A stretch of 64,000 nucleotides of DNA from contig JBDRHE010000087.1 in NCBI GenBank assembly GCA_043817155.1, positions 983 through 64,982 on the forward strand. The letters run 5' to 3'. The DNA comes from Candidatus Omnitrophota bacterium (GTDB lineage: Bacteria > Omnitrophota > Gorgyraeia > JABMRN01 > RBG-13-46-9). Positions within the stretch are counted from its first letter, which is position 1, and every line of letters starts with the position of its first letter. This document shows, one piece after another, positions 9,589 through 52,959 of this stretch. The notes under the pieces were generated by a model. The model was not told where the DNA came from, did not search any database, and was given only the letters and a program-made list of their open reading frames with translations. A program made the translations under genes and the position numbers.

Positions 9589-9597
9589 TGCGTTGCA

Positions 9598-33645: not shown

Positions 33646-33669
33646 CGATGACCTAAAAAGGGCATACAT

Positions 33670-33738
33670 GATTACGCGGATTTTGTGAACTATTTAGCGT
33701 TTTGATTACACGGATTATAGAAAGAGATTACACGGATG
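33670..33738 (+). promoter_or_regulatory. Three direct copies of GATTACRCGGAT(G) upstream of the first gene of the mbh operon
   Basis: Copies at 33670-33681, 33704-33715, 33726-33738 (last overlaps the ATG); same motif at 45024/45044, 49853/49872/49895/49956, 50744/50764. Confidence 0.5.
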
Positions 33739-35639: not shown

Positions 35640-35646
35640 GTTGCTG

Positions 35647-36120
35647 ATGAAAAGAGAAGAGATCCTGAAAGACTTAAAAGAGAGATTCAAAGGCGATATA
35701 ATAGATGTCTTTGACAAGACTATAAAGAGGGTATATATCGAAATCTACCCGAAATCCATAAGAAGGGTTGCCACCTATGTCTTTAAGGATCTTGGCGCCA
35801 GATTCAATATTGCCTCAGGCGTAGATGTACGCGACCATATGGAGATTCTCTATCATTTTACAATCGAAGAGATAAATCTCCTGATATCCTTGAGGGTGAA
35901 GCTCGATAAGTCAAAGCTGGAGATAGACTCTATTGCTCCTATTTTTGAAGGAGCCAATTGGATAGAGAGGGAGATTCACGAAATGTTCGGAATAGACTTT
36001 AAGGGGCACCCGGATATGAGGAGACTCCTCCTACCCGACGGGTGGCCGGAAGGCGTATATCCTTTGCGGCGAGATTACAAGGAATGGGATAAGGGCGCGA
36101 TAAGGGATAGAGGGGTATAA
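35647..36120 (+). CDS. mbhK: NuoC/MbhK-like subunit
   Basis: NuoC-family fold; operon position. Confidence 0.8.
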   Translation: MKREEILKDLKERFKGDIIDVFDKTIKRVYIEIYPKSIRRVATYVFKDLGARFNIASGVDVRDHMEILYHFTIEEINLLISLRVKLDKSKLEIDSIAPIFEGANWIEREIHEMFGIDFKGHPDMRRLLLPDGWPEGVYPLRRDYKEWDKGAIRDRGV

Positions 36121-36123
36121 TAA

Positions 36124-36252
36124 AATGTTTCTTAAGGTTACTTGAGGTTTCTTGAGGTTGCACTTCGTTTGCAAAATCCCGAAACTTTAAGAAACATTCC
36201 GAAACCTGAAGAAGCCTCAAGTAACGTTAAGCAACCTAAGGAAAGAAACATA
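36124..36252. repeat. Family-E imperfect inverted repeat (GTTTCTTAAGGTT / GAGGTTTCTTGAGGTTGCA), inside the operon upstream of mbhL
   Basis: Second copy at 43506-43612 upstream of mbhN. Confidence 0.7.
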
Positions 36253-36260
36253 TAAATAAT

Positions 36261-37442: not shown

Positions 37443-37446
37443 ATTT

Positions 37447-39108
37447 ATGAATATAAGCGCGCAACTTTTCAGATTTGATAACCTGTCAATCTTTGTAGGT
37501 ATATTCATTGCCTTCTTCTCCGCGCTTACTATATTCTATTCTTTCGGATTCATGCGTAAGAGGGGCGGTCAGATCGGTTATTACCTATGTATAATTCTTA
37601 CTCTGGCAACATCGCTTGGGGCGGTCTTCTCTAACAATCTTATACTTTTTGTTGTCTTCTGGGGTTTTTTGGGATTTCTTTTATATCTTTTAATCGGGTA
37701 CGGCCAAAAAGAGAGAACGTCATATACTGCCAAGAAGGCGTTTATAATAATTGGCGGGACGGATGCTTTCATGTTGCTGGGTTTAGCATTTGTCTGGCAT
37801 ATTGCAGGATCATTCGATATGGACAAGCTGAGCATTGCTCTGGATAGCCGCCTTGCTACTTCGGCATATCTCTGCCTCGCTGTTGGCGCATTTGCCAAGG
37901 CGGGGGCAATGCCATTCCATACCTGGGTTCCGGATATGGCGGAAGACGCACCTACATCGGTTACAGCTTTCTTGCCGGCATCTTTGGACAAACTCCTAGG
38001 CATATATCTGCTTGTAAGAATTTCATTAGATATATTCGTGATGAATCAGACAATGAATACGTTTCTGCTTGCCATAGGCAGTATAACAATAGTCGCGGCT
38101 GTCATGATGGCCCTTGTGCAACATGATCTAAAGAGGCTCTTGGGGTATCATGCGGTAAGCCAGGTAGGGTACATGGTTCTTGGAATAGGCACCGGAAACC
38201 CGATAGGTATCGCAGGGGGGCTCTTCCACATGTTGAACAACGCGGTTTATAAGTCGTGCTTATTCATGTCAGGTGGGGCGATTGAAAAGAAGGCCGAGAC
38301 GACCGATCTCGGAAAGCTGGGTGGATTTGCCAGAATTATGCCCATCACCTTCGTAACCTTCTTAATTGCGTCGCTGGCGATATCAGGGGTACCGCCATTT
38401 AACGGTTTTACCTCTAAATGGATGATTTATCAGGGCATAATAGAGACAGCCAAAGGCGGAGGCCGACTCTGGGTTATATGGCTTATCGCGGCGATGTTCG
38501 GCAGCGCTCTAACGCTGGCCAGTTTTATGAAATTGATTCATACTATTTTTTTGGGACAACCGTCGAAAGAACAGAAGAGCAAAATAGAAAAAGGGGGGCG
38601 TCAGGAGACCGGGCCGACAATGTGGATACCACCCGTTATATTGGCCGCTCTGTGCGTCCTTTTTGGTGTATTTGCATTCAGAATACCGCTTAAGTTATTT
38701 ATATTACCCAGTCTGAGCATGAAGGTTCTTTTTACGGGGGTATGGAGCGCGCCGCTTGCGACAATTCTGATATTTATAGGAATAGGAGTCGGTTTTGTGG
38801 TCTACCTTTTTGGTACGGTCATTAAGACAAGATCGACCGAGCCATTTATTGGCGGCGAAATCTTGGGAGCGCATTCATCCATCCGGGTTTCCGGAACGGA
38901 ATTCTATACTTCAATACAGGATATAGGTATTTTAAGATTTATATACAATCTTGCGCAGAAGAAAGTATTTGACTTATATGAGGTTGGAACCAAGATCACA
39001 TTTGCCTTTAACAAACTTTTACGTTATCTTCATAATGGCGTGCTTTCAACGTACCTGGCATGGTGTCTTCTCGGAATGCTGATACTGTTCATTACGTTGC
39101 TTAAATAA
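37447..39108 (+). CDS. mrpA: Mrp antiporter subunit A-like (NuoL/MbhH family), N-terminal portion
   Basis: NuoL/MrpA proton-pumping antiporter fold, 553 aa. Confidence 0.8.
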   Translation: MNISAQLFRFDNLSIFVGIFIAFFSALTIFYSFGFMRKRGGQIGYYLCIILTLATSLGAVFSNNLILFVVFWGFLGFLLYLLIGYGQKERTSYTAKKAFIIIGGTDAFMLLGLAFVWHIAGSFDMDKLSIALDSRLATSAYLCLAVGAFAKAGAMPFHTWVPDMAEDAPTSVTAFLPASLDKLLGIYLLVRISLDIFVMNQTMNTFLLAIGSITIVAAVMMALVQHDLKRLLGYHAVSQVGYMVLGIGTGNPIGIAGGLFHMLNNAVYKSCLFMSGGAIEKKAETTDLGKLGGFARIMPITFVTFLIASLAISGVPPFNGFTSKWMIYQGIIETAKGGGRLWVIWLIAAMFGSALTLASFMKLIHTIFLGQPSKEQKSKIEKGGRQETGPTMWIPPVILAALCVLFGVFAFRIPLKLFILPSLSMKVLFTGVWSAPLATILIFIGIGVGFVVYLFGTVIKTRSTEPFIGGEILGAHSSIRVSGTEFYTSIQDIGILRFIYNLAQKKVFDLYEVGTKITFAFNKLLRYLHNGVLSTYLAWCLLGMLILFITLLK

Positions 39109-39109
39109 G

Positions 39110-39658
39110 ATGGTTGAACTATACATATTATTAATTCTGATGATCATGGGCGCGATAATCGCCGTTGAGGTTAAGGACATGCTCTCTTCGGTTGTAGCGG
39201 TAGGAGCGGTGGGCCTCATTCTCTCAATAGCCTTTTTGATACTAAAAGCACCCGATGTTGCTATTACCCAGCTCGTTGTTGAGATATTGGCCCTCATTAT
39301 CTTAATCAGGGCAACACTTAAGAAGGATCTGCCTTTTTCAACATCCGGAAGATGGGTACTAAATACCGTAATTACTTTTGCGTTCATAGGCGTGCTGCTA
39401 CTTGTCGCGCGCAAATGTTTCGCTGACTTGCCGGAATTTGGCTATCCTATAATGAGAGTGGCGGATACCTATATAAAGGACGGGCTCTTGAAGACAGGCG
39501 CAACCAACGTTGTGTCATCCGTTATACTGGATTTCAGGGCTTTCGATACACTTGGTGAGGCGACGGTCCTGTTTACAGCAGTTATAGGTGTATTGGCTAT
39601 TGTCAGGCGTACCGGAAGAAAGACGGAAGGTCAGAAGATAGAGGAAGAGGAAGAATAA
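39110..39658 (+). CDS. MrpA C-terminal / MnhB-domain protein (DUF4040-like)
   Basis: VILDFRAFDTLGE motif typical of the MrpA C-terminal/MnhB domain. Confidence 0.7.
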   Translation: MVELYILLILMIMGAIIAVEVKDMLSSVVAVGAVGLILSIAFLILKAPDVAITQLVVEILALIILIRATLKKDLPFSTSGRWVLNTVITFAFIGVLLLVARKCFADLPEFGYPIMRVADTYIKDGLLKTGATNVVSSVILDFRAFDTLGEATVLFTAVIGVLAIVRRTGRKTEGQKIEEEEE

Positions 39659-39930
39659 TGAGCCCCGTTAGACCTCTATATTTTACATATGTTTTAGAAA
39701 GTGAGAAGACAGGTGAATTCTATACTGGTGCTACATCCGATTTAAAGAAAAGAATAGTGAAACATAATAAAGGTTTGGTTGCTTCTACAAAATGTAGAGT
39801 TCCATTATATTTAGTATATTTTGAAGCATGCTTTAACAAAGAAGATGCTTTTCGCAGAGAAAAATATCTGAAATCTGGAATGGGTAAACGATATATCAAA
39901 AATCGATTAAGAGGAGATCTAACGGGGTGA
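39658..39930 (+). CDS. GIY-YIG nuclease-superfamily protein (YhbQ/UPF0213-like) inserted inside the mrp module
   Basis: LYFTYVLESEKTGEFYTGATSDLKKRIVKH matches the GIY-YIG core; markedly AT-rich; 1-nt and 4-nt overlaps with flanking genes. Confidence 0.7.
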   Translation: MSPVRPLYFTYVLESEKTGEFYTGATSDLKKRIVKHNKGLVASTKCRVPLYLVYFEACFNKEDAFRREKYLKSGMGKRYIKNRLRGDLTG

Positions 39931-40379
39931 GCAGAGAACACGAAAAGGGAATGTCTCTTATCGTTAAGACCGTTACGAGGCTTACAGTGGGTCTCATTAT
40001 ATTGTATGGTGTATACATTGTTCTTCACGGCCACGTTTCACCGGGTGGGGGTTTTGCAGGCGGCGTCATAATAGCCCTCTCCATTGTTCATCTTATGCTT
40101 GCTTATGGCAAAGACGTTGCTCTGGCGAAGCTTTCACGGGGCGCTGCACACTTCTTTGAGAGCACAGGTGCGCTCCTTTTCCTGGTTATAGCGATACTCG
40201 GATTCACCGGCGGGTACTTCTTTCTCAATTTTATATCTAAGGGAGAGCCCTTCCACCTCTTTAGCGCCGGCATAATTCCTCTTTGCAATATAGCCATAAG
40301 CATGAAGGTTGGAGCCGGGCTCTTTGCGATCTTCATTGCGCTCGTTCTCTTAGATCTGGAATCCGGGAGAAAGTCATGA
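39927..40379 (+). CDS. mrpB: Mrp antiporter subunit B
   Basis: HGHVSPGGGFAGGVI motif. Confidence 0.8.
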   Translation: MSREHEKGMSLIVKTVTRLTVGLIILYGVYIVLHGHVSPGGGFAGGVIIALSIVHLMLAYGKDVALAKLSRGAAHFFESTGALLFLVIAILGFTGGYFFLNFISKGEPFHLFSAGIIPLCNIAISMKVGAGLFAIFIALVLLDLESGRKS

Positions 40380-40714
40380 CTTTATATTTACTCTGTTTAA
40401 CGCTCTTCTCGATAGGCATATATTGCGTATTAAGAAAACGAAACATTATAAAAATAATTGTAGGGATCATCATATCCGAGTATGCGGTCAATCTTTTCTT
40501 TATTTTAGTGGCATATCGCATAAATGGGCGGGCGCCGATATTATCCCCAGATGTAAATATAACGAACATGGTCGATCCCTTGCCACAGGCTCTGGTTTTA
40601 ACCTCCATCGTCATAGGGCTTGCGACGACAGCATTACTTATAGCAATTGCAATGCGAATTTATGAGAAATACGGTACTTTCGATATAACAAAGATAAAGG
40701 AGCTGAGAGGTTAA
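40376..40714 (+). CDS. mrpC: Mrp antiporter subunit C (NuoK-like)
   Basis: 113 aa with three TM helices; ATG overlaps the upstream stop. Confidence 0.8.
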   Translation: MTLYLLCLTLFSIGIYCVLRKRNIIKIIVGIIISEYAVNLFFILVAYRINGRAPILSPDVNITNMVDPLPQALVLTSIVIGLATTALLIAIAMRIYEKYGTFDITKIKELRG

Positions 40715-42216
40715 TGCAGGGCGCGAATATTTTACCACTCTTCATAATAATACCGCTTGCCGGCGCATTTCTTAACTCACTTATCGGGAAGAGAATAAAG
40801 TGGGTGCCGGACCTTTTGGGTAACGTAGCAACACTGGGCCTCTTCATTGTTTCGCTTCTGGCCGTTTGCCTGGTTAATGCGCAGGGCGTGTTGTCATATA
40901 GCGTCGGGGCATGGAAGATGCCGCTCGGTATAGCGATGGTCCTGGACGGTTTCACCGTATTCATGCTGGTTACGGTCAATCTCGTAGCATTTGCCATCTC
41001 GGTCTATTCGATAAATTACATGGAGAAGTATACCTCTAAATGGAAATTCTACACACTATTTTTATTGATGCTCGCGGGCATGAATGGAGTCGTTATAACG
41101 GGCGATATGTTCAATCTGTTTGTGTTCCTGGAGATAGCATCCGTTGCCAGTTACGCCCTGGTTGCTTTCGGAACGGAGCGCCACGAATTGGAAGCCGCGT
41201 TCAAGTATGCAGTAATGAGCAGCATAGGGTCGCTCTTTGTTCTTCTGGGAATCGTCTTCTTATACAGCCTTACATCGACACTTAATATGGCGGACATGTC
41301 AAACGTCCTGGCCCAAAAGGGAGCAAACAATATTACACTTATGGTCAGCGTTCTGTTCATAATGGGATTCGGTCTGAAAGCGGCTTTAGTTCCTTTTCAC
41401 GCATGGCTTCCGGACGCCCACCCGTCGGCACCCGCTCCGATATCCGCGATGTTGTCCGGAGTCCTCATTAAATCACTTGGTATCTACGCACTATGCAGAA
41501 TATTCTATAATGTTATAGGGATAACCCCGGCCATATCATCGGTACTGATGTTCTTAGGTACGCTCTCTATGGTCGTGGGGGTGTTCCTGGCTATAGGGCA
41601 ATGGGATCTGAAGCGGCTTTTGGCCTATCATTCGATAAGTCAGATAGGCTACGTTATTCTTGGTGTGGGGCTTGGGACACCGCTGGGCATACTTGGAGGA
41701 CTCTTCCATCTATTCAATCATTCCGTCTTCAAATCACTCTTATTTTTGAATTCCGGAGCCATCGATTACGCAACGGGCAACCGTGACTTACAGAAGATGG
41801 GTGGCTTGATGGGAAAGATGCCGGTTACAGGCTGTACAGGCTTAATAGCGTCTATGTCGATAGCCGGTGTGCCGCCCTTCAACGGCTTTTGGAGCAAGCT
41901 TATAATCATTTTAGCAGCTGTCCAGGCGGGCCGATTCGGGTATGCATTCTGGGCGGTACTCGCAAGCTTGCTTACCCTTGCATCGTTTACCAAGGTCATG
42001 AAGTACGCATTTTTCGGGAACCTCAAATCCAGGTGGACGAAGGTCAAAGAGGTGCCAATCGCAATGAAGTTATCGATGGTGTCACTGGCAATAATCTGCG
42101 TTTTAGGAGGAGTTCTTATTATCTCCTCTGTGAGTGACGTCTTCTTAAAGAGCGCAAGCGATGTGATTTCGTCCGGAACCGACTATGCGCGTTTAGTCTT
42201 TAAAAGTATACGGTAA
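40714..42216 (+). CDS. mrpD: Mrp antiporter subunit D (NuoM/N-like)
   Basis: NuoM/MrpD family, 500 aa. Confidence 0.85.
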   Translation: MQGANILPLFIIIPLAGAFLNSLIGKRIKWVPDLLGNVATLGLFIVSLLAVCLVNAQGVLSYSVGAWKMPLGIAMVLDGFTVFMLVTVNLVAFAISVYSINYMEKYTSKWKFYTLFLLMLAGMNGVVITGDMFNLFVFLEIASVASYALVAFGTERHELEAAFKYAVMSSIGSLFVLLGIVFLYSLTSTLNMADMSNVLAQKGANNITLMVSVLFIMGFGLKAALVPFHAWLPDAHPSAPAPISAMLSGVLIKSLGIYALCRIFYNVIGITPAISSVLMFLGTLSMVVGVFLAIGQWDLKRLLAYHSISQIGYVILGVGLGTPLGILGGLFHLFNHSVFKSLLFLNSGAIDYATGNRDLQKMGGLMGKMPVTGCTGLIASMSIAGVPPFNGFWSKLIIILAAVQAGRFGYAFWAVLASLLTLASFTKVMKYAFFGNLKSRWTKVKEVPIAMKLSMVSLAIICVLGGVLIISSVSDVFLKSASDVISSGTDYARLVFKSIR

Positions 42217-42217
42217 T

Positions 42218-42715
42218 ATGAAGAAGAGAATAGTTCTATTCATAACGGCTTTTATTGTATGGTGCCTATTGAATTGGGTGCCTGACATGCAACACATCTT
42301 AGTTGGTATCTTCGTATCTCTTTTTGTTGCGTATATGACAGGCGACCTCTTTGTGCAGAGACCCCATATCCTGACGCACCCCATGAGGTACCTCTATTTT
42401 ATCTTCCAATATTTACCGGTATTTCTATGGGAGATCATAAAGGCGAATATAGATGTCGCATATCGGGTTGTGCATCCCGGATTACCTATAAATCCGGGGA
42501 TCGTAAAGGTAAAGACGACCCTTAAATCTGATATTGCGCTGACATTTTTGTCTAACTCAATTACGCTTACTCCGGGAACGCTGACCGTAGACATCGATAA
42601 GGATAACGCTGTTCTCTATGTACACTGGATCGATGTCAAGGCCAAAGATGTCAATACCGCGACTAAGATAATAGTAGAACGGTTTGAAAGGATCTTGAGA
42701 AAGATTTTTGATTAG
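42218..42715 (+). CDS. mrpE: Mrp antiporter subunit E
   Basis: MnhE family. Confidence 0.8.
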   Translation: MKKRIVLFITAFIVWCLLNWVPDMQHILVGIFVSLFVAYMTGDLFVQRPHILTHPMRYLYFIFQYLPVFLWEIIKANIDVAYRVVHPGLPINPGIVKVKTTLKSDIALTFLSNSITLTPGTLTVDIDKDNAVLYVHWIDVKAKDVNTATKIIVERFERILRKIFD

Positions 42716-42772
42716 AAAAATAGGTGAGATGAACCCCGTTAGAACTCTATCGGGGTGAAGAAAGTTGCGAAG

Positions 42773-43177
42773 ATGAATAATTCTAATGGGCTTGGCAAAA
42801 CCGACGGGGTGAAGGTTGTTAAGTGGCTGGTAGGGGCGGTCGTTTTAACGGGCATAGCAACTCTCATCGTATTGCGTCCCTTCCCATGCCTTATCTGTCC
42901 CGGTTTTGCGTATTCGGGATTCTTCAGCCGCGCACTCTATATAGTCATCTTAGCATCTGCGCTATGTCTCTACCGCGTGTGGAAAGGACCGACCGGAGCC
43001 GACAGGATAGTGGCTGTAGACATACTTGGAATCATGATAATAGGATTGTGCGCGGTACTTACGGTTTGTACGGGCAGGTCCTGGTATATCGATATCGGAA
43101 TTGCGTGGGCCCTGCAAAGCTTTATAAGCACGTTAGCGCTTTCCAAATATCTAGAAGGCAGAGGATTTGATGAATGA
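42773..43177 (+). CDS. mrpF: Mrp antiporter subunit F
   Basis: MnhF-like TM helices; start uncertain (GTG at 42755 or ATG at 42773). Confidence 0.65.
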   Translation: MNNSNGLGKTDGVKVVKWLVGAVVLTGIATLIVLRPFPCLICPGFAYSGFFSRALYIVILASALCLYRVWKGPTGADRIVAVDILGIMIIGLCAVLTVCTGRSWYIDIGIAWALQSFISTLALSKYLEGRGFDE

Positions 43178-43505
43178 TATTATTGGGTTGGTATTTATTG
43201 GCATTGGGCTGGCATTCGATGTTTTCGGGTGTCTGGGTCTTGTAAGGCTTCCAGATGTGTATAATCGTCTGCAAGCTGCGACAAAGTGCGTGACACTCGG
43301 CACCTGCAGCATTCTATTCGGAACGTTTCTCATAGTTGGACTTACGGCTGCAGGAGTAAAATCGCTACTTTGCATAGTGTTTCTCATATTGACCTCTCCT
43401 GTTGCGGCACATGCGATAGCCAGGGGCGCCCACAGGGCGGGTGTCAAGCTCTGTGACGAAAGCGTGATAGATAAATATAAAGAAGATAAAGAAGGGGAAG
43501 CATAA
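43170..43505 (+). CDS. mrpG: Mrp antiporter subunit G
   Basis: MnhG family (LVRLPDVYNRLQAATK). Confidence 0.8.
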   Translation: MNDIIGLVFIGIGLAFDVFGCLGLVRLPDVYNRLQAATKCVTLGTCSILFGTFLIVGLTAAGVKSLLCIVFLILTSPVAAHAIARGAHRAGVKLCDESVIDKYKEDKEGEA

Positions 43506-43612
43506 GAGGTTTCTTAAGGTTTCGGAATGTTACTTAAGGTTTCTTGAGGTTGCAACAACTTAAATGCAACATAAAGAAACTTCCCGGAACCTAAAGAAAC
43601 ATTAAGAAACAT
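43506..43612. repeat. Family-E imperfect inverted repeat, second copy
   Basis: GAGGTTTCTTAAGGTTTCGGAATGTTACTTAAGGTTTCTTGAGGTTGCA ... GAAACATTAAGAAACAT. Confidence 0.7.
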
Positions 43613-43621
43613 AAAATATAT

Positions 43622-44233
43622 ATGAGATTACCAAAGATAAGGGAAGTTATCGAGGCGGTAAAAGCGCTTATCAAGGGCCCATATACATCGAAGTTCCCTG
43701 CGGAACCTCACGTTCCACATCCCAATTTCAGGGGTCAACCCAAGTTTAACGATAAGAGGTGTGTAGGGTGCCTGGCGTGCGAAGAGGTTTGCCCGGTAAA
43801 CGCCATAGATCATAAGGACCGGATGGATGATAAGCCGGACGCGAAGCGTATCATGATCCATTACACCGATACGTGCATTTTCTGCGGTCAATGTGAGGCC
43901 GCATGTATAGCCGATCATGAGGGCATCAAGCTTTCGAACGACTGGGAGCTCTCATTCTTCGACAGAAAAGAGGCCCAGGAGTCTATCGAAAAGAAGCTGG
44001 AGCTTTGTGAAATTTGCGGCTCGGTAATTGCCTGCAAAGACCATTTAAAGTGGATCTCTCTTAAATTGGGCGAACTTACATATTCAAGTCCTACCTTGTA
44101 CCTCTCCCGCCTTAAGAGCCTCGGAATTATAGATAATAACATCATATCCGCATTGAAAGATAACGGTCGCTCTGACAGGGTGAAGATCTTGTGTGCCCGT
44201 TGCAGAAGAGAGACTACTCTTACCACGAAATAG
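43622..44233 (+). CDS. mbhN: NuoI/HycF/MbhN-like 2x[4Fe-4S] subunit
   Basis: CVGCLACEEVCP and CIFCGQCEAAC motifs. Confidence 0.8.
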   Translation: MRLPKIREVIEAVKALIKGPYTSKFPAEPHVPHPNFRGQPKFNDKRCVGCLACEEVCPVNAIDHKDRMDDKPDAKRIMIHYTDTCIFCGQCEAACIADHEGIKLSNDWELSFFDRKEAQESIEKKLELCEICGSVIACKDHLKWISLKLGELTYSSPTLYLSRLKSLGIIDNNIISALKDNGRSDRVKILCARCRRETTLTTK

Positions 44234-44323
44234 CCTTAAGCTTTAAGCCATAAGCCTTAAATGTATCTTCTCTAACGAGCGCAGATGATGAGACTTACGG
44301 CTTATAGCTTATAGCTTACAGCT
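44234..44323. repeat. Family-F ATAAGCT/AGCTTAT-rich inverted repeat directly after a stop codon
   Basis: AAGCCATAAGCC...GGCTTATAGCTTATAGCTT; copies at 46503-46577 and 52117-52212. Confidence 0.7.
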
Positions 44324-44325
44324 AT

Positions 44326-44817
44326 ATGAAGAAAGAATTAAAAGATATACTAAAAGGCAAGGTCGTTATCGTTGGCATCGGGAATGTTTTAAAAGGTGAT
44401 GATGGATTCGGCCCTGCGCTTATAGAGAGATTGAATACTACGGGTGTTGACGCGACCTGTATAGATGCCGGAACATCCCTGGAGAATTATTTTGGCAAGA
44501 TCGCGAAAGAGGATCCCGATGTTATCTTAATAGTTGATGCGGCTCATTTAGAGCTTAACCCGGGAGAGTGTGCCATCCTGGAATCGGAAGATATTCTGAG
44601 GAGCGGTCTCACCACGCATGATATATCGCCTAAGATGTTTATAGATTATTTGAAGGATCATACAAGAGCATCCGTATATATGCTGGGTGTTCAACCGGAG
44701 AGTATTTCACTGGGTGATGAGATGTCCGCAACCCTTGGTAGAAGTCTAGGTAATATCGCGAAAGATATGGAGGAGATACTGAATGCACGAGACACATCTG
44801 ATAGAACCCATAATTAA
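44326..44817 (+). CDS. hycI: Hydrogenase maturation endopeptidase (HycI/HyaD family)
   Basis: VVIVGIGNVLKGDDGFGP motif. Confidence 0.85.
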   Translation: MKKELKDILKGKVVIVGIGNVLKGDDGFGPALIERLNTTGVDATCIDAGTSLENYFGKIAKEDPDVILIVDAAHLELNPGECAILESEDILRSGLTTHDISPKMFIDYLKDHTRASVYMLGVQPESISLGDEMSATLGRSLGNIAKDMEEILNARDTSDRTHN

Positions 44818-45025
44818 AGGAATTTCCGAACACGCGAGGAAAGAGGGCGCCAAGAGCGTATCCAGGGTGAGGCTTAAGATAGGGGAATTTACGGGTATCA
44901 AAGAAGAGTCATTCCGGGAGACTTTTAGAGTATTGGCTAAAGGTACAGTATTGGAAGGAACTAAACTCGAACTTTCGTATTTTTTAGCTTCACGGATCGA
45001 GGTAGTGTCTTTCGATATAGAGTGA
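44783..45025 (+). CDS. hypA: HypA-like Ni metallochaperone, N-terminal domain only (no zinc finger)
   Basis: MHE Ni-binding N-terminus and core alignable to E. coli HypA; lacks the C-terminal CxxC...CxxC. Confidence 0.65.
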   Translation: MHETHLIEPIIKGISEHARKEGAKSVSRVRLKIGEFTGIKEESFRETFRVLAKGTVLEGTKLELSYFLASRIEVVSFDIE

Positions 45026-45041
45026 TTACACAGATTAGGGA

Positions 45042-46139
45042 GTGATTACACAGATGAGCAAGGGTTCGAACATACTGGCTCTCGGGGCCGATATGAAGAG
45101 CAGGTATCTGGTCGCAAGCGGCAGCAAGCTCGAGTTCGGTCCGGAGATAGGGGATCTCGGCGAGGCCAGGAACTTCGCATTCTTCAAGAGGAAAGTACAA
45201 CAGGTCGTCAAAAGGACAAAGCCGGCTATTATAACGCATGACCTGCATCCCGGTTATTTTTCCACCCGATTGGCCAGGAGAATAGGCGCCGAACATCCTG
45301 CTGCCAGTCTACTGCCGGTCCAACACCACTATGCTCACATAGCAAGCGTGATGGCCGAATTTGGATTAAAAGGACCCGCTATAGGGGTTGCGCTTGACGG
45401 AACAGGTTTGGGTACTGACGGAAATATATGGGGTGGCGAATTTATTGTGGTGAGAAACCGGAACTTCAACCGTGTGGGGCATTTCAAATATATCAGGATG
45501 CCGGGCGGGGAGAAGGTTATAAGCGAGATCTGGAGAATGGTTATTAGCATACTGGGCAGAGTCGGGTGTCCGTTCCTAAAAGATGTTGAGGAGATAGCGA
45601 AAGAGATGCTCATATCCATGATGGAGAAGGGTATCAATTCGCCGTTAACCTCAAGTGTCGGCAGGATCTTCGACGCTGCCGCGTCGCTTACAGGCGTCTG
45701 TCGGGAAGCCGCATATGAAGCGGAAGGACCGATAAAGCTCGAGAAACTATGTGATTACAAGATCAAGGAAAGTTATAATTTCACGATATCAAAAAATAAG
45801 GGCACATTTACAATCGATGTAAGGCCAATTTTTTTTGAATTGATTAAAGATCTCAAGAAAAGAACGAAGAGATCGGTTATTGCTACGAAATTCCACAATT
45901 CAATGGTTATGGCGGTCTTTAAAATGGTAAAGAAGATAACGGAAGAAACCGGGATAAAGGATGTTCTGCTCTCGGGAGGGGTGTTCCAGAACAGTTTTTT
46001 GAGAAGGAGGCTCATGGAGAAGTTGTCCAAAGCCGGGTTCAAGGTTTTTATAAATGAAAAGACGCCGGTAAATGACCATAATATAGCACTTGGGCAGTAT
46101 TATATCGCGAAGAATTATCCACAAACGAACAGTAAGTAG
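45042..46139 (+). CDS. hypF: HypF-like carbamoyltransferase, Kae1-like C-terminal domain only
   Basis: PVQHHYAHIASV and VALDGTGLGTDGNIWGGEF match the HypF C-terminal domain; no acylphosphatase, Zn-finger or YrdC domains; begins MITQM at a GATTACACAGATG motif. Confidence 0.75.
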   Translation: MITQMSKGSNILALGADMKSRYLVASGSKLEFGPEIGDLGEARNFAFFKRKVQQVVKRTKPAIITHDLHPGYFSTRLARRIGAEHPAASLLPVQHHYAHIASVMAEFGLKGPAIGVALDGTGLGTDGNIWGGEFIVVRNRNFNRVGHFKYIRMPGGEKVISEIWRMVISILGRVGCPFLKDVEEIAKEMLISMMEKGINSPLTSSVGRIFDAAASLTGVCREAAYEAEGPIKLEKLCDYKIKESYNFTISKNKGTFTIDVRPIFFELIKDLKKRTKRSVIATKFHNSMVMAVFKMVKKITEETGIKDVLLSGGVFQNSFLRRRLMEKLSKAGFKVFINEKTPVNDHNIALGQYYIAKNYPQTNSK

Positions 46140-46200
46140 CGAGTAGCAAGTAGAGAGTAGAGAGAGCTTCTCGCTACTTGCTACTCTCTACTCGCCACTT
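46131..46200. repeat. Family-D AGTAG/CTACT hairpin element, second copy, overlapping the hypF stop
   Basis: Approximately 95% identical to 15160-15232. Confidence 0.7.
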
Positions 46201-46234: not shown

Positions 46235-46513
46235 ATGTGTTTAGCCACACCCGCGAAGATAAAGAAAATAGAGGAGACCGTCGATAGCGGGAAGACCGCC
46301 ATTGTTGATTTCGGTGGCGTTCAAAGAAGGATCTCTCTTGGTATCCTGAATAATGCTAAAATAGGCGACTACGTTCTTGTGCACGCCGGTTTTGCGATAG
46401 GCAAGGTTAGTAAGCTTGAAGCAGAGAATACAAAAAGGGCGTTAGAGGAGCTGCGGAGAACATACGAAGGGGCGCAAATGTATGTTGAAGATATAGATAT
46501 CCATAAGCTATAA
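46235..46513 (+). CDS. hypC: Hydrogenase maturation factor HypC
   Basis: MCLATP N-terminus (Cys2). Confidence 0.9.
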   Translation: MCLATPAKIKKIEETVDSGKTAIVDFGGVQRRISLGILNNAKIGDYVLVHAGFAIGKVSKLEAENTKRALEELRRTYEGAQMYVEDIDIHKL

Positions 46514-46577
46514 GCCGTAAGCTATAAGCTTAGACCGTTTTGAGCTTATAGCTTAAAACTTAAGGCTTAAAGCTTTG
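46503..46577. repeat. Family-F inverted repeat overlapping the hypC stop
   Basis: ATAAGCTATAAGCCGTAAGCTATAAGCTT...GAGCTTATAGCTT. Confidence 0.7.
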
Positions 46578-46597
46578 GTCAATTTAAGGAAATTGTT

Positions 46598-47608
46598 GTG
46601 AAGCAGATTAAGCTCATGGAAGTATGCGGAACGCATACAATGGCGATTGCGAGAGCAGGAATAAAGAAGGTCTTACCCAAAGGCATTAAGCTTGTATCGG
46701 GCCCGGGATGCCCTGTGTGCGTAACGGACCAGACGAATATCGATTATGCTATAGAGGTATCGCGTATTAAGGACGTTATCATGGCTACGTTCGGCGATAT
46801 GTTGCGTGTTCCCGGTTCTCAAGGTAGCCTGGATGATATAAGAAGAGAGGGTTACGACGTTCGAGTAGTGTATTCCTGTATCGATGCCCTTAAGATCGCG
46901 AAGGTTAACCCGGGCCATAGAGTTGTATTTATGGGCGTTGGTTTTGAAACTACCGCTCCTACAGTAGCAGCCAGCGTTTTGGAGGCGGAGCGAAAGGGGA
47001 TAAGCAACTTTTTTGTCTTATCGAATTTTAAACTTGTATTCCCGGCGCTCGAGATTATCTCAAGCTCGAAGAGAGTCCAGATCGACGGTTTTATATGCCC
47101 GGGGCATGTTAGCGTTATTACTGGCAGCAAACCTTACGAAAAGATCGCAAATAAATATAAGAGACCGTGTGTCATTATGGGTTTTGAACCCTCAGAGATA
47201 TTGAGTGGCATAAGCAGACTGGTCAAGCAGGTCAGGAACGGGGAGCATAAGGTCGAGATCGATTATAAGAGAGCCGTAAAAAGGTCCGGCAATGTTACTG
47301 CGCGAAATGTCCTCAATTCAGTTTTTGAAGCGGATGACGCAGAATGGAGAGGTATAGGCCAGATCAAGAAGAGTGGTTTAAGTATAAGAAGAGAATACAA
47401 GAAGTTCGACGGAAAGAGAGAATTTAATCTCATCGTCCCCCGGGCGCCGAAACCCCGTGGGTGCATATGTGGCGACGTATTACAAGGTATATATTCACCC
47501 CAGGACTGCAAATTATTTAAGAGGTTTTGTACGCCCCAGCGGCCGGTTGGGCCTTGCATGGTCTCTTCCGAGGGGACATGCGCGGCATACTTTAAGTACG
47601 GGGGGTAA
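46598..47608 (+). CDS. hypD: Hydrogenase maturation factor HypD
   Basis: CGTHT, GPGCPVC and C-terminal CPVC motifs. Confidence 0.9.
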   Translation: MKQIKLMEVCGTHTMAIARAGIKKVLPKGIKLVSGPGCPVCVTDQTNIDYAIEVSRIKDVIMATFGDMLRVPGSQGSLDDIRREGYDVRVVYSCIDALKIAKVNPGHRVVFMGVGFETTAPTVAASVLEAERKGISNFFVLSNFKLVFPALEIISSSKRVQIDGFICPGHVSVITGSKPYEKIANKYKRPCVIMGFEPSEILSGISRLVKQVRNGEHKVEIDYKRAVKRSGNVTARNVLNSVFEADDAEWRGIGQIKKSGLSIRREYKKFDGKREFNLIVPRAPKPRGCICGDVLQGIYSPQDCKLFKRFCTPQRPVGPCMVSSEGTCAAYFKYGG

Positions 47609-47896
47609 CACGGAACGCATGACACGTGAATTTAATAGTAAACTTACGATGGACGAAAGACGATGGACGGCTTTTGACTCGTCTTTGCGAGGTGCCGCAA
47701 TAGACTGAGCGCACCGAAGCAATCTCGCTAAGTCTGTCTTTGCGAAGTGCCTTAATATACTAAGCGCACTGAAGCAATCAAACTAGCTCGATGAGATTGC
47801 TTCGGCACGCTCGAATATTCCGGTGCCTCGCAAAGACGAGGAAAGCTTGAGATTGCTTCGGCACGCTCGAATATTCCGGTGCCTCGCAAAGACGAG
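47609..47896. repeat. Family-A modular repeat with the R-arm tandemly duplicated
   Basis: Forward units 47679-47726 and 47733-47779; R-arm copies 47791-47839 and 47848-47896 are 100% identical; a degenerate third start supplies the track's ATG at 47902. Confidence 0.85.
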
Positions 47897-47934
47897 AAAA
47901 GATGAGATTGATTTGGCACAAGAAAGTGAAGGGA

Positions 47935-48930
47935 ATGGTGAAGAGCGAAATAGTAACACTGGCGCACGGCAATGGCGGCAGGTTAATGCATGAACTTATT
48001 GAGAGGCTGCGCCGCATGTTTTCCAATAAGATCCTGGACGAGATGGCGGATGCCGCGCGAATTCATGTGAATAGAAAGGATATAGCATTCAGTACGGACT
48101 CCTATGTTGTCAAGCCCCTATTCTTCCCGGGAGGGGATATAGGGAAGCTCGCGGTCTGCGGAACAGTTAATGATATATCAATGAAGGGCGCAAGACCGCT
48201 CTTTATATCGCTCGCCTTAATTATCGAGGAAGGATTCGAAATGCATACCCTCGACAGGATCGCGCAATCTATAAAGGTTGCCTCAAGAAAGGCCGGAGTC
48301 AGAATTGTAACAGGCGACATAAAGGTTGTTGAAAATGGATCGGCCGACGGACTTTTTATAAACACATCAGGGATAGGTGTGCTGATAGATCCCGATAGAC
48401 ATATAGGCGCAAAGGCAAGAGTGGATGATGTTATAATCATAAATGGCGGCATAGCGGAACATGGCATGGCCATTCTGAATGCAAGGGAGAGACTTGGATT
48501 TGTTGCCGGCATTAAGAGTGACTGTAAAAATCTTAATGCAGATATTGCAAAAATTATTAAGACCTCAAAGAATGTCAGTGTTTTGCGCGATCCTACAAGG
48601 GGTGGGCTTGCTACAGCATTGAACGAGATAGCTTCTGCATCTAATCTGGGAATAGAGATCGATGAAGGGAGCGTACCGGTAAGAAAGAATGTAAGAAAGA
48701 TGTGTGACATATTGGGGTTCGATCCGATGTATATTGCCAATGAAGGCAAATTCTTATGTTTCGTAAACCGCTCGGATGCTTCGAAAGTCCGACGGGTTAT
48801 GGGCAAGGATGCCTCTATAATCGGAGAGGTCGTGTCACGTCACAAAAGTGAGGTCCATTTGAGGATAGGGATCGGTTCAAGTCGCATTCTACCTATGCTT
48901 GAAAGCGATCAGCTCCCGCGCATCTGCTAA
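47935..48930 (+). CDS. hypE: Hydrogenase maturation factor HypE
   Basis: TLAHGNGG N-terminus, AIR-synthase-like fold, C-terminal PRIC. Confidence 0.9.
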   Translation: MVKSEIVTLAHGNGGRLMHELIERLRRMFSNKILDEMADAARIHVNRKDIAFSTDSYVVKPLFFPGGDIGKLAVCGTVNDISMKGARPLFISLALIIEEGFEMHTLDRIAQSIKVASRKAGVRIVTGDIKVVENGSADGLFINTSGIGVLIDPDRHIGAKARVDDVIIINGGIAEHGMAILNARERLGFVAGIKSDCKNLNADIAKIIKTSKNVSVLRDPTRGGLATALNEIASASNLGIEIDEGSVPVRKNVRKMCDILGFDPMYIANEGKFLCFVNRSDASKVRRVMGKDASIIGEVVSRHKSEVHLRIGIGSSRILPMLESDQLPRIC

Positions 48931-48938
48931 GAGAGGGA

Positions 48939-49835
48939 ATGCTAGTAAAATACATGAAAGAGAGTCTGCAAGTTTTATATATTACGGCAGCATCGCTTGG
49001 ATTTGTCCATACAGTCTTTGGACCGGACCACTACCTACCTTTTATCGTAATGGGCCGGGCCAGAGAATGGTCACTCGCGAAGACATTGTGGATAACATTT
49101 CTCTGCGGCATCGGACATATATTAGGCTCTGTTCTTCTTGGCATGATGGGTATAGCCTTTGGCATAGGGGTAATGCGGCTAGAAGCTCTGGAGGAGATTC
49201 GGGGAAATCTTGCAGCGTGGGTCTTGATTGGATTTGGGCTCGCCTATTTTGTGTGGGGGCTTCGAAGGGCAATAAGATATAGATCGCATCGTCACAAACA
49301 TCTTCATCCGCCTCCGCAGGAAACCCCAGCTTTGGCCGGGGAAGAATGTGGCAGTTCTGCTTCCGCCTTCGCTGAATGGCATTCGCGTTCAGCTTCGGCG
49401 GACAAGTCGGCGAGATGTCGCCTCGAAGATGGCGGGCGGATGCCGCGCCGAAGCTCGAAGAGCGAAGGCGGGCTCCACAGTGGTGATGACCGCCATGCCC
49501 ACGGCCATGTACATACAGGTGGGCACTCACACGTCCACGACAAGAATGGAAAAAACATAACCCCGTGGATACTTTTTACAATCTTCGTCCTTGGGCCGTG
49601 CGAACCGCTCATACCGCTTCTTATGTACCCGGCATCGAAAAGCAGCATGACGGGACTCGTCTGGGTAACGGCCATATTCGGTGTAGTGACGGTCCTGACA
49701 ATGATTTCGATCGTGCTTTTAATGTCTTTAGGGGTTAACCTCATTCCGCTCGGAAAACTGGAACGCTATACCCACGCTCTAGCCGGTGCCACGATACTCC
49801 TTTCCGGCCTCGCTATACAATTCCTTGGTTTATAA
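48939..49835 (+). CDS. NicO/RcnA-family nickel/cobalt transporter with His-rich loop
   Basis: TM motifs VHTVFGPDH and GPCEPLIP (compare RcnA LHGLEPGH / LIPCP); central HAHGHVHTGGHSHVH loop; follows the hyp genes. Confidence 0.65.
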   Translation: MLVKYMKESLQVLYITAASLGFVHTVFGPDHYLPFIVMGRAREWSLAKTLWITFLCGIGHILGSVLLGMMGIAFGIGVMRLEALEEIRGNLAAWVLIGFGLAYFVWGLRRAIRYRSHRHKHLHPPPQETPALAGEECGSSASAFAEWHSRSASADKSARCRLEDGGRMPRRSSKSEGGLHSGDDRHAHGHVHTGGHSHVHDKNGKNITPWILFTIFVLGPCEPLIPLLMYPASKSSMTGLVWVTAIFGVVTVLTMISIVLLMSLGVNLIPLGKLERYTHALAGATILLSGLAIQFLGL

Positions 49836-49852
49836 TAACTTCTATTGACAGA

Positions 49853-49997
49853 GATTACACAGATTAAGGAGGATTACACAGATGGTTGCCTCGTATCTGT
49901 GTAATCAAAACGTTGCATACTTCACAGAATCAAGTTTTATCAATCTGAATAAAAAATCTGTGTAATCATTGAGAAAATATGTTATTTAGTATATAAT
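49853..49997 (+). promoter_or_regulatory. GATTACACAGAT motif cluster (two direct, two inverted) plus TTGAGA-N17-TATAAT promoter for nadE
   Basis: Motifs at 49853-64, 49872-83, 49895-906 (RC), 49956-67 (RC); -35 at 49969-74 and -10 at 49992-97. Confidence 0.5.
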
Positions 49998-50022: not shown

Positions 50023-50745
50023 ATGATGGATCTCAGCGCAAAGATAGCAGATTGGATTAAGAAGCAGGTCCGTGATGCCGGGAAAAAAGGAATCATTGTG
50101 GGACTCAGCGGCGGCATAGATTCAAGTGTTGTGGCAGCGCTTTCGAAGCGCGCCGTGGGGGATAATGTGCGTGGTCTTATACTTCCCTGCAAGAGTAATT
50201 CGGAAGATGTTGAGTTAGCTTATAAGGTATCGAAGAGATTTAACATTAAAACGGAAGAGGTTGTGCTGGATAAGCTATTCGACCAGATGGTTAACGTATA
50301 TCCGGCAGCAAGGGATCTGGCGAAATCGAACCTGAAACCTCGCCTACGCATGACAACCCTCTATTACTTCGCGAATGCACTCGATTATCTTGTGGCCGGA
50401 ACCGGTAACAGGACCGAGCTGGTTATCGGTTACTTTACGAAATACGGGGATGGGGGTGTAGATATTCTACCTATAGGAGGACTGCTTAAATCGGGAGTAA
50501 GGAAATTGGCCAAAAAACTCGATGTGCCAGGAGAGATCATCGCAAGGCCGCCTTCTGCGGGTCTCTGGCACGGTCAGACCGATGAAGGCGAGATAGGTAT
50601 AACCTATGATGAGCTTGACAGGACGATCAATGCCATAAATAATGGTAAGACCAGCGATATAGACAAGGAGATCTTGGCAAAGGTCAACGGCATGATTAAG
50701 AATTCAGAACACAAGAGATGCGCCGTACCAATATTCGAAGAATGA
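50023..50745 (+). CDS. nadE: NH3-dependent NAD+ synthetase
   Basis: GLSGGIDSSVVAAL PP-loop. Confidence 0.9.
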   Translation: MMDLSAKIADWIKKQVRDAGKKGIIVGLSGGIDSSVVAALSKRAVGDNVRGLILPCKSNSEDVELAYKVSKRFNIKTEEVVLDKLFDQMVNVYPAARDLAKSNLKPRLRMTTLYYFANALDYLVAGTGNRTELVIGYFTKYGDGGVDILPIGGLLKSGVRKLAKKLDVPGEIIARPPSAGLWHGQTDEGEIGITYDELDRTINAINNGKTSDIDKEILAKVNGMIKNSEHKRCAVPIFEE

Positions 50746-50761
50746 CTACACGGATTGGGGA

Positions 50762-52132
50762 ATGATTACACAGATGAAAAGAGATTCGAGTAGATGTATC
50801 CGCGATATCGAGGAGATGTTCGAGCTCTCTCCAGGCGAAATTCGGCGGATAGTAAAGGATTTCCATTCGGAGATGCGAAGAGGTCTTTCGGGACGGGGAA
50901 GCTCGCTCAAGATGATACCCTCTTACGCCGGAAGACCAAGCGGTACCGAGAAGGGCAGGTTTCTTGCTCTTGATCTCGGTGGAACGAATTTCAGGCTTCA
51001 GTTGATAAGGTTGGAAGGTAATAGACGGATACGGTCTTGCATGTCAGAGAGTTATGTTTTGAAGAAGAGACTTTTGAGAGGCACAGGCAAGAAGTTTTTC
51101 GATTTCATAGCCGGCCGCGTAGAAAAATTCATTGATAAAAATGGAAAGGCCGGAGATGAAGACTGTAAAATAGGATTTACCTTCTCATTCCCTGTTAAGC
51201 AGACCAGGGTAGACAACGGTATCCTGATCAGGTGGACAAAAGGGTTCCAGATAAGTGGTGTAGAGGGTAAGGACGTGGTCAAATTGCTTAATGAATCTCT
51301 GAAAGGTAGAGGATTGGGATATGTAAGTGTCGTCGCTCTTGCAAATGATACGGTAAGTACGGTCGCTGCTAAAAGCTATGAAGATAAGAACTGCGACATC
51401 GGCGTAATCTTGGGGACCGGTACGAACGCCTGTTATTGCGAAAAGCGCTCCAATGTATTAAAGGTAAGAAAAGAGGCGATCTTGCCCAGAGGCGTCTTTA
51501 TAAATATGGAGTGGGGCAACTTTAGTAAAATAAGATCTACGGCATATGACAGGGAGTTGGACGCATCATCGGTCAATCCCGGAGAACAGTTACTCGAAAA
51601 GATGGTGTCAGGCAGATATCTTGGAGAGATCGCAAGATTAGTTTTAAGAGATTTAAAAAGAAGGAGAGCGATTTTCATAAATAGACCCATCTCCATATTG
51701 GACATGCCGTATCGATTCAAATCAGAATATATGTCGATGGCCGAGAGCGATAATTCTAAAATGATGACGCGAACAGATAGATTGCTAAAGAAGCTGGGCA
51801 TAAATAAATCATCTGCTGCCGACAGGAGGCTTCTCAAGAGAGTGTGCATGGCGATCTCTAAGAGAGCTGCATGTATCAGCGCAGCGGCCATATTTTCGGT
51901 GGTTACCAAAATAGATAGCCGCGTGTCCAGGCGACATACGATAGCTGTAGATGGTTCTGTTTATGAAAAGTATTGCGGATTCCCGAAGAAGATGAGAGAT
52001 GCGCTTAAAGAGAATTTCAGACTGATAGATCAAAACAGAGGCGTTTCCAGAGTAAGGCTGAGCCTCACTAAGAATGCGTCCGGCAAGGGCGCCGCTGTTA
52101 TAGCGGCGATGAGTAGAGCTTTAGCTTCCTAG
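50762..52132 (+). CDS. Hexokinase-family sugar kinase (eukaryote-type)
   Basis: LDLGGTNFRL signature and two-domain actin-fold kinase; begins MITQM at a GATTACACAGATG motif. Confidence 0.75.
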   Translation: MITQMKRDSSRCIRDIEEMFELSPGEIRRIVKDFHSEMRRGLSGRGSSLKMIPSYAGRPSGTEKGRFLALDLGGTNFRLQLIRLEGNRRIRSCMSESYVLKKRLLRGTGKKFFDFIAGRVEKFIDKNGKAGDEDCKIGFTFSFPVKQTRVDNGILIRWTKGFQISGVEGKDVVKLLNESLKGRGLGYVSVVALANDTVSTVAAKSYEDKNCDIGVILGTGTNACYCEKRSNVLKVRKEAILPRGVFINMEWGNFSKIRSTAYDRELDASSVNPGEQLLEKMVSGRYLGEIARLVLRDLKRRRAIFINRPISILDMPYRFKSEYMSMAESDNSKMMTRTDRLLKKLGINKSSAADRRLLKRVCMAISKRAACISAAAIFSVVTKIDSRVSRRHTIAVDGSVYEKYCGFPKKMRDALKENFRLIDQNRGVSRVRLSLTKNASGKGAAVIAAMSRALAS

Positions 52133-52224: not shown

Positions 52225-52959
52225 ATGACTTTATTGTATATCCTGGCGAGCGTCATCATAACAAGCGCGATTTCACTCATTGGAGTACTGACAATCGGGG
52301 TGAAGAACAACCTTTTTGAGAGGTTTTTGGTTCTGATCGTTGGATTTGCCGCAGGTGGAATGATCGGGGGCGCTTTTTTGCATCTTTTGCCGGAAGCTTT
52401 GGAACTGGGTGGAGGCGATAGGGTATTCCTCTATGCGCTTGTCGGCTTTACCGTCTTTTTCATAATGGAGAGATATTTTCACTGGAGACACTGTCATGAC
52501 GACAATTGTGAAGTGCACCCTTTTACCTATCTGAATTTGGCGGGTGACGGTCTGCACAACTTTACCGACGGCATAATCATAGCTGCCAGCTTTGTTACGG
52601 ATGTGAGGTTGGGAGTCGTTACAACCCTTGCGGTTATATTTCACGAGATTCCGCAGGAGATAGGTGATTTCGGAATTCTGGTATACGGTGGATTCAGTAA
52701 GAGAAAGGCTCTTCTTTTAAACTTCTTATGCGCGCTTTTCAGTGTTATAGGCGCGATTTTGGGATACGCGCTCTCCACTATGATGGAGAATACCGCATTC
52801 TTCTTCATCTCGTTTACCGCGGGTGGATTTATATACATAGCCGCATGCGATCTTATACCTGAACTTCACAGGCAGAAGAATGCAAAGAGATCGAACGCGG
52901 CGCTTGCAGCTTTTATCGCAGGTCTTGTATTTATGGCGTTGGCCAAGACTCTTTTATAG
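52225..52959 (+). CDS. zupT: ZIP-family zinc transporter
   Basis: HEIPQEIGDF and GGxxGGAFLHLLPEA motifs. Confidence 0.85.
   Translation: MTLLYILASVIITSAISLIGVLTIGVKNNLFERFLVLIVGFAAGGMIGGAFLHLLPEALELGGGDRVFLYALVGFTVFFIMERYFHWRHCHDDNCEVHPFTYLNLAGDGLHNFTDGIIIAASFVTDVRLGVVTTLAVIFHEIPQEIGDFGILVYGGFSKRKALLLNFLCALFSVIGAILGYALSTMMENTAFFFISFTAGGFIYIAACDLIPELHRQKNAKRSNAALAAFIAGLVFMALAKTLL

Follow-up and report, generated by a model that had tools for sequence, protein, structure and literature searches.

Here we examine a locus for [NiFe]-hydrogenase maturation in a 64-kb stretch of a contig from an Omnitrophota metagenome-assembled genome (MAG) (Candidatus Omnitrophota bacterium, GenBank assembly GCA_043817155.1, contig JBDRHE010000087.1, positions 983 to 64,982). 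We refer to this whole stretch of 64,000 nucleotides (nt) as the window, and all genes discussed lie on its plus strand. An operon for a group 4 (Mbh/Mrp-type) membrane-bound [NiFe]-hydrogenase, recognized from family matches and orthologous loci, spans positions 33736 to 44233. On its 3′ side follow, in order, hycI, hypA, hypF, hypC, hypD, hypE, and a gene for a histidine-rich membrane protein. Two of the encoded maturation proteins, HypA and HypF, are unusually short, and the question is how a maturation pathway could work with them.

The hydrogenase itself has the features that call for maturation. Its large subunit (36261 to 37442) is 37% identical to Escherichia coli HycE (E value 4e-83), and a motif check against HycE found both CxxC pairs (RICGICSTSH and DPCYCCTER) as well as a HycE-like C-terminal extension of 33 amino acids (aa) after the Arg. 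It thus carries both the N- and C-terminal CxxC ligand pairs and the C-terminal extension, as cleaved by the protease, of a group 4 [NiFe]-hydrogenase large subunit. With four Ni/Fe cysteines and a cleavable tail, this subunit requires an NiFe(CN)2CO cofactor and a protease. A Fer4 subunit resembling HycF/NuoI is encoded at 43622 to 44233, and the MbhD/E, MnhB, MNHE, MrpF, and PhaG families are present in two orthologous loci (L002 and L084 in our numbering of loci, which we use throughout). The hydrogenase type served by the maturation module is group 4g Mbh [NiFe]. Immediately after the operon, hycI (44326 to 44817) encodes a HycI-type hydrogenase maturation endopeptidase (Pfam HycI, E value 1.2e-12; TIGR00072, 103 bits) and shares its last 35 nt with hypA.

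According to reviews, [NiFe]-hydrogenase maturation needs six Hyp proteins, of which HypA, with a nickel and a zinc domain, works together with HypB (PMC12134894). The hypA gene of the window (44783 to 45025) encodes only 80 aa, and these correspond to the nickel-binding domain. The protein matches positions 1 to 65 of the 112 in the Pfam HypA model (E value 1.7e-15) and positions 1 to 66 of the 116 in TIGR00100. Its score passes the Pfam gathering threshold (57.4 versus 28.9) and, at 59.2, falls below the TIGR00100 equivalog cutoff of 88.1. There is no cysteine anywhere in the 80-aa protein and hence no CxxC...CxxC structural zinc site.

The missing module was not lost from the end of the protein. 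A reading of the letters made beforehand (the sequence-only reading) had held that HypA terminates before its zinc module; the absence of the module stands, and the idea of a premature end does not. Where canonical HypAs show the pattern ...L.I....P...C..C...C..C...G.EL.I.SIEVE, the short protein aligns as ...LELSYFLAS-RIEVVSFDIE, so that residues 70 to 80 (SRIEVVSFDIE) correspond, in the alignment and in a structural model alike, to the last beta-strand of the canonical fold. The AlphaFold (AF2) model, with a pLDDT of 95.4, has an alpha-beta-alpha-beta-beta topology made up of helix 4 to 20, strand 26 to 34, helix 41 to 52, and strands 61 to 67 and 72 to 79, with a 4-residue turn between these two strands. 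When the model was used as a Foldseek query, the top 14 matches were all HypA structures. The best (TMq 0.91, root mean square deviation 1.7 Å) was Thermococcus kodakarensis HypA 3a43_B, whose zinc domain was skipped in the alignment. This "mini-HypA" is therefore an internal domain excision with the final beta-strand kept, and as modeled it forms a complete Ni-binding alpha/beta domain. It retains the N-terminal Met-His-Glu nickel motif (MHETH), and H2, E3, H5, and H17 are invariant in 47 homologs. His5 is missing from all 30 canonical HypAs that we extracted, which makes it a candidate extra nickel ligand.

The second short protein, HypF, begins at an ATG at 45054 (361 aa) or a GTG at 45042 (365 aa) and ends at 46139. 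The NCBI gene call uses the ATG and names the 361-aa product "hypothetical protein"; both it and the window HypA exist as exact NCBI protein entries. As the sequence-only reading had proposed, the protein is the C-terminal, Kae1-like carbamoyl-transfer domain and nothing more. Its only domain matches are HypF_C and HypF_C_2 (Kae1-like, PF17788 and PF22521; E values 8e-24 and 1.6e-79), and it covers positions 386 to 740 of the 741 in TIGR00143, with 262.8 bits against a cutoff of 466.1. Neither Pfam and NCBIfam searches nor a tblastn search of the window with 17 HypF N-terminal halves found an acylphosphatase domain (PF00708), the two zf-HYPF zinc fingers (PF07503), or a YrdC/Sua5-like domain (PF01300) in it. 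In alignment, the HypF start falls a few residues from that of the E. coli Kae1-like domain (around residue 393). The HxxxH...D...D metal site is kept, with H91, H95, D115, and D341 (361-aa numbering) aligned with E. coli H475, H479, D502, and D727 and invariant in 38 sequences. The closest solved structure is that of Caldanaerobacter HypF (3vth), over residues 399 to 746 (E value 1.3e-97). In the canonical enzyme, the YrdC domain makes carbamoyl adenylate and the Kae1 domain transfers the carbamoyl group to HypE (PMC9654439), and it is the first of these activities that the short protein would lack.

One explanation for two short genes side by side is an artifact or decay, in which a deletion, frameshift, or misassembly removed the 3′ end of hypA, hypB, and the 5′ half of hypF. 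The spacer between hypA and hypF could be taken to mark such a breakpoint, as it is made of a dispersed repeat: two copies of TGATTACACAGAT fill positions 45023 to 45055 and contain both the hypA stop and the hypF start. In addition, HypF genes split by frameshifts do occur in other assemblies (L015, L165, L167, and L168). Against this, the same 80-aa and approximately 355-aa proteins and the same junction recur in dozens of independent assemblies without the repeat, the C terminus of HypA is the native last strand of its fold, and no remnant of the HypF N-terminal half is found in any frame of the window (tblastn with the N-terminal halves of E. coli HypF and 16 further full-length HypFs). 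We likewise rejected a single deletion running from mid-hypA through hypB into mid-hypF and marked by TGATTACACAGAT, as many repeat-free genomes encode the same short proteins. The conservation data refute artifact and decay, to which we assign only a very small residual probability.

These conservation data are extensive. The best 120 relatives of the window HypA, drawn from more than 120 protein clusters with 71 to 85% identity, are almost all exactly 80 aa long. For HypF there are more than 100 protein clusters with 49 to 59% identity; the best 120 relatives are all 338 to 407 aa long with Kae1-type domains only, and the named clusters among the matches listed are all labeled Omnitrophota or Omnitrophica. 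Among hypA genes, the proportion of nonsynonymous differences (pN) is 0.12 to 0.22, versus 0.74 to 0.95 (1.05 in one pair) for synonymous differences (pS). Synonymous sites are thus saturated while pN stays low, which indicates purifying selection. The order Mbh, HycI, HypA (80 and 81 aa), HypF (350 and 352 aa), HypC, HypD, and HypE recurs on two Omnitrophota contigs with CP accessions, CP070780.1 (1.43 Mb) and CP070655.1 (1.14 Mb). Many Omnitrophota genomes carry the module genes intact and in conserved synteny, under purifying selection; the short forms are not decayed duplicates.

To define the related loci, we combined the window with 80 metagenome loci found via mini-HypA and five genome loci, 677 kb in total. 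In all of them except L109 and L124, where the contig ends no more than about 120 nt from hypA, the hycI gene immediately precedes the 80-aa hypA. The Mbh large subunit, where present, is 80 to 89% identical. HypF is less constant. A Kae1-only hypF begins 0 to 200 nt after hypA in 41 of 85 loci. In about 27 others, whose sequence continues for 600 nt or more beyond hypA, no hypF follows, and often there is only hypC. A full-length hypF is found near mini-HypA in five loci (L133, L147, L155, L157, and L158), plus L167. The converse is seen in a second clade of Omnitrophota (L045 and L166), which has Kae1-only HypFs, 39 to 41% identical, in a different gene context, with no hycI or hypA nearby; the short HypF of L166 is genuine and shares synteny with that of L045. 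Since mini-HypA also stands beside full-length HypF genes, the two reductions are independent events and not one coordinated "minimal set," as the sequence-only reading had seen them. Mini-HypA is a hallmark of the Mbh/HycI cluster and either arose before HypF was truncated or did so independently.

Short HypF calls need care in another respect. In L015, L165, L167, and L168, mostly long-read assemblies, full-length hypF genes are split by frameshifts into N-terminal-half and Kae1 fragments, which in protein databases mimic "short HypF" and "stand-alone N-half" proteins. Calls of short HypF from a search of 50%-identity representatives therefore have to be treated with caution.

The missing parts may be encoded elsewhere in the same genomes, as a stand-alone protein with the acylphosphatase, zinc finger, and YrdC domains or a second full-length HypF, a hypB, and perhaps a full-length hypA, with the operon copies acting as specialized partners. 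We regard this as possible but clearly short of an even chance. Cupriavidus necator offers a precedent, with HypF1 encoded alongside HypA and HypB in one operon and HypF2 and HypF3 elsewhere; some mini-HypA lineages have a full-length HypF a few kilobases away; and the sequence inspected comprises about 20 kb around each gene. Our searches speak on the other side. Within the window, hypB is absent, as the sequence-only reading had stated: tblastn with E. coli HypB and 36 diverse HypB fragments found no match, and open reading frames (ORFs) of at least 60 aa contain no Walker A or deviant Walker A motif. The sole match to the regular expression K[GS]xGG[FY] is in a 78-aa minus-strand ORF (15459 to 15692), which we take to be due to chance. 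That reading had also allowed that the missing domains might be encoded upstream through a sequencing or frame error, and tblastn found no in-frame or frameshifted upstream coding for them. Across the 677 kb of related loci there is likewise neither a HypB nor a stand-alone HypF N-terminal half.

The same searches did find these sequences where they exist. As controls and as sources of N-terminal-half and HypB queries, we used hypF loci from other phyla taken from a genome scan with a short-HypF alignment, in which the matches listed were mostly full-length HypFs. HypB was detected in 36 of 78 of these loci, and tblastn recovered frameshifted N-terminal halves directly upstream of seemingly short HypFs in L015 and L165. 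A profile search with the HypF N-terminal halves from mini-HypA lineages that have a full-length HypF yielded no Omnitrophota-labeled match and no genuine stand-alone N-terminal half among the best 120 of 7,941 matches; covering only these 120, it is weak negative evidence. Two matches on long contigs that seemed to consist of an N-terminal half only proved on inspection to be frameshift fragments of full-length genes. The module-bearing contigs, at 1.1 to 1.4 Mb, are also small. Finally, in the part of the KEGG orthology (KO) table of Seymour et al. 2023 available to us, the Omnitrophota genome with GenomeID 231 has a count of 1 each for K04651, K04653, K04654, K04655, and K04656 (hypA, hypC, hypD, hypE, and hypF), together with Mrp genes and a count of 1 for K07566 (tsaC/sua5), and K04652 (hypB) is not among the KOs listed there.

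The remaining Hyp proteins are closer to the usual forms, although the sequence-only reading, which called all three canonical, was right for HypC and HypE and not for HypD. HypC (46235 to 46513; Pfam HupF_HypC, E value 3.8e-24) has an N-terminal Met-Cys. HypE (47902 to 48930; TIGR02124, 414.7 bits) ends in PRIC, and its true start is probably Met12, at 47935. HypD (46598 to 47608; Pfam HypD, E value 1.2e-148, model positions 18 to 351) is short by about 30 N-terminal residues, including an F-x-D-E-[FY]-R motif, that the HypDs of E. coli, C. necator, and L166 possess. The same shortening is seen in L002 (11233 to 12249) and L084 (11249 to 12247), and the HypDs of the lineage are 332 to 338 aa long. 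Next to hypE lies the gene for the histidine-rich polytopic membrane protein (48939 to 49835), which contains HRHKHLH and HAHGHVHTGGHSHVH stretches and has a weak match to DsbD_2. In other phyla, homologs with 50 to 56% identity are encoded beside hypE or hypF (L014, L015, L073, and L079), and the protein is a candidate nickel transporter.

Taken together, these observations favor, at a probability that we put at about 0.55, a functional maturation module in a reduced, lineage-typical form, with HypF fed in trans and mini-HypA acting without HypB. The short HypF would be confined to the second half-reaction, in which the C-terminal Cys of HypE receives the carbamoyl group of carbamoyl-AMP. The carbamoyl-AMP itself would be made in trans by an enzyme of the YrdC/Sua5 family encoded elsewhere, which could be either a stand-alone paralog or the housekeeping TsaC/Sua5. 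Mini-HypA may deliver nickel via its N-terminal Met-His-Glu site, perhaps aided by the invariant His5, and would do so without the conformational switch that HypB drives and in which the zinc-domain side of HypA takes part. The nickel could be supplied by the adjacent candidate transporter. Delivery without HypB is plausible because high nickel bypasses hypB defects (PMC12134894), and the high-affinity site that HypB induces depends on conformational changes of the two-domain HypA (PMC12134894).

Several points weigh against this reading. HypB, the HypF N-terminal half, or a second full-length HypF may yet sit in the rest of the MAG or of the genomes with CP accessions, and the KO counts of GenomeID 231, as given in the accessible part of the table, depend on whether a Kae1-only protein passes the K04656 threshold. 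His5 is proposed as a ligand from its conservation only. The C. necator HypF1 appears inactive anaerobically in E. coli (Fan et al., PMC9100943) and failed to complement an E. coli hypF mutant (Lamont et al., PMC5350229). Both results argue against a housekeeping TsaC as a sufficient partner, and equally against a Kae1 domain that is sufficient by itself.

The latter idea, that the Kae1-only HypF is self-sufficient or uses an adenylating enzyme other than YrdC in a truly simplified route to the cyanide ligand, is in our view unlikely. Its attraction is that the Kae1/ASKHA fold binds a nucleotide and a metal, and that in the window, L002, and L097 the gene for an NAD synthetase, an adenylate-forming PP-loop enzyme, follows hypE at a short distance. 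However, HypF1 alone was reported inactive in E. coli, and the linkage to nadE is absent from most short-HypF loci (including L003, L004, L084, L092, L101, L110, L111, L136, L146, and L164). We know of no Kae1-family enzyme that forms an adenylate itself, which also counts against such a route. NadE as the substitute adenylating enzyme was rejected, its linkage being confined to the window, L002, L097, and L166. In L166, a radical-SAM gene and a glutamine-dependent NAD synthetase gene lie between hypD and hypE (8870 to 12139). The either/or posed by the sequence-only reading, supply in trans or a simplified route, remains the right frame for the reduced module.

A stronger version of the reduced-module reading is that the Omnitrophota genomes of 1.1 to 1.4 Mb mature their [NiFe]-hydrogenase with no HypB, HypA zinc domain, or HypF N-terminal domains encoded anywhere. 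We advance this only tentatively and would not bet on it. Were it true, HycI, HypA (Ni domain), HypF (Kae1), HypC, HypD, and HypE would form a natural minimal Hyp set; carbamoyl-AMP would have to be provided by the housekeeping TsaC/Sua5 or by some yet undiscovered route that operates under anoxic conditions; and the suggestion that a truncated HypF works aerobically only would be contradicted.

The short proteins are of interest in their own right. In one hydrogenase clade, a strongly conserved, naturally zinc-free HypA of 80 residues always accompanies HycI. This suggests that nickel delivery in the clade can do without the zinc domain and without the switch that HypB drives, and the protein is a minimal subject for studies of structure and mechanism. 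The Kae1-only HypF, occurring across Omnitrophota, generalizes what had been an oddity of C. necator HypF1 and sharpens the question of the source of carbamoyl-AMP in the absence of a YrdC domain. There is also a practical consequence: because HypA and HypF score below their equivalog cutoffs and HypF is entered as a "hypothetical protein," annotation pipelines can undercall the hydrogenase maturation capacity of Omnitrophota.

The spacers of the window are rich in repeats. The TGATTACACAGAT element is a dispersed 13-nt core in units of about 20 nt, with 11 matches in the window versus 1.35 expected, all of them intergenic. It occurs at 33669 to 33737, 45023 to 45055, 49852 to 49968, and 50743 to 50775 and provides the stop/start context of hypA/hypF and of nadE/hexokinase, and as a result both downstream ORFs begin with "MITQM" if read from the upstream start. 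Between hypD and hypE, positions 47678 to 47900 hold nested direct and inverted 55-nt repeats (D3, D8, I11, and I12), in which two direct units are followed by two inverted copies so that a single hairpin of about 220 nt can form (folding energy, -132.9 kcal/mol; z = -10.5). This hairpin has no match in Rfam and is not present in the compact orthologous loci L002 and L084. Other operon spacers (36111 to 36235 and 43493 to 43615; 44228 to 44325 and 46497 to 46585; 46135 to 46199) contain short-period repeats, with 10-nt AGGTTTCTTA-like and 7-nt AGCTTAT-like units, which either form local hairpins or have inverted counterparts kilobases away. Elements of this kind seem to have come to occupy the intergenic spacers of the host genome, whereas its relatives have overlapping genes.

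Further features lie within and beyond the operon. A 90-aa ORF with a GIY-YIG nuclease domain (39658 to 39930; Pfam E value 1.2e-13) is inserted between Mbh/Mrp membrane-subunit genes, and its first 22 nt recur at 42729 to 42750; for L002 and L084, no GIY-YIG family was reported among the Mbh/Mrp genes that were called. Downstream of the maturation genes, a eukaryote-type hexokinase (Hexokinase_1 and Hexokinase_2; 50774 to 52132) is followed by a ZIP metal transporter (52225 to 52959). The pair is also found downstream of the hyp genes in L002 (18336 to 20329), and the hexokinase also in L097. Two very large ORFs (53947 to 58596, 1,549 aa; 58645 to 61704, 1,019 aa) have no Pfam match at an E value of 1e-4 or lower, and AT skew is strongly positive (0.25 to 0.33) in their region.

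Among characterized systems, canonical HypAs (T. kodakarensis 3a43 and 5aun, Helicobacter pylori 6g81, and E. coli HypA and HybF) share the MHE motif and the Ni-domain fold with mini-HypA, which, like them, is encoded in a hydrogenase operon beside a maturation protease gene. It differs from them in having a 4-residue turn in place of the zinc module of about 35 residues (CxxC...CxxC), in the additional invariants His5 and His17, and in the lack of a HypB partner nearby. We found no description of a zinc-free HypA in the searchable literature. Canonical HypF (E. coli 3tsp; Caldanaerobacter 3vth) has a Kae1-like domain homologous to the window HypF over the whole length of the latter, and its partner HypE has a C-terminal Cys, as does the window HypE. 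What is gone from the window protein is the acylphosphatase, zinc finger, and YrdC-like domains, equivalent to E. coli residues 1 to about 390. A division of labor of the proposed kind has analogs, and only analogs, in TobZ and in t6A synthesis by TsaC/Sua5 and TsaD/Kae1, in which a YrdC-type activity makes an acyl-adenylate and a Kae1-type activity transfers the carbamoyl group; in t6A synthesis the two activities reside on separate proteins (PMC9654439).

The closest parallel is HypF1 of C. necator (Ralstonia eutropha) H16 (pHG1; WP_011153939; 394 aa; L083, 10034 to 11218), so that the Kae1-only architecture of HypF is already known. HypF1 likewise consists of the Kae1-like domain only, starting about 12 residues upstream of the same boundary; its gene, too, immediately precedes hypC-hypD-hypE; and it keeps the HxxxH...D...D site. 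With one of three domains, HypF1 likely needs carbamoyl adenylate (Fan et al., PMC9100943). Its host, an aerobic betaproteobacterium, encodes HypF1 in one operon with a canonical HypA and HypB and has full-length HypF paralogs in the genome, whereas Omnitrophota are inferred to ferment or to be acetogenic, and their short HypFs are widespread in the phylum with no full-length copy detected nearby. The window HypF is 29% identical to the E. coli Kae1 domain and 36 to 43% identical to full-length HypFs of other phyla, and for this reason the truncations in Omnitrophota and in HypF1 are likely independent. What is new here is the wide occurrence of Kae1-only HypF in Omnitrophota, the zinc-free HypA, as far as the searchable literature shows, and the combination of these with the absence of HypB from the gene neighborhood.

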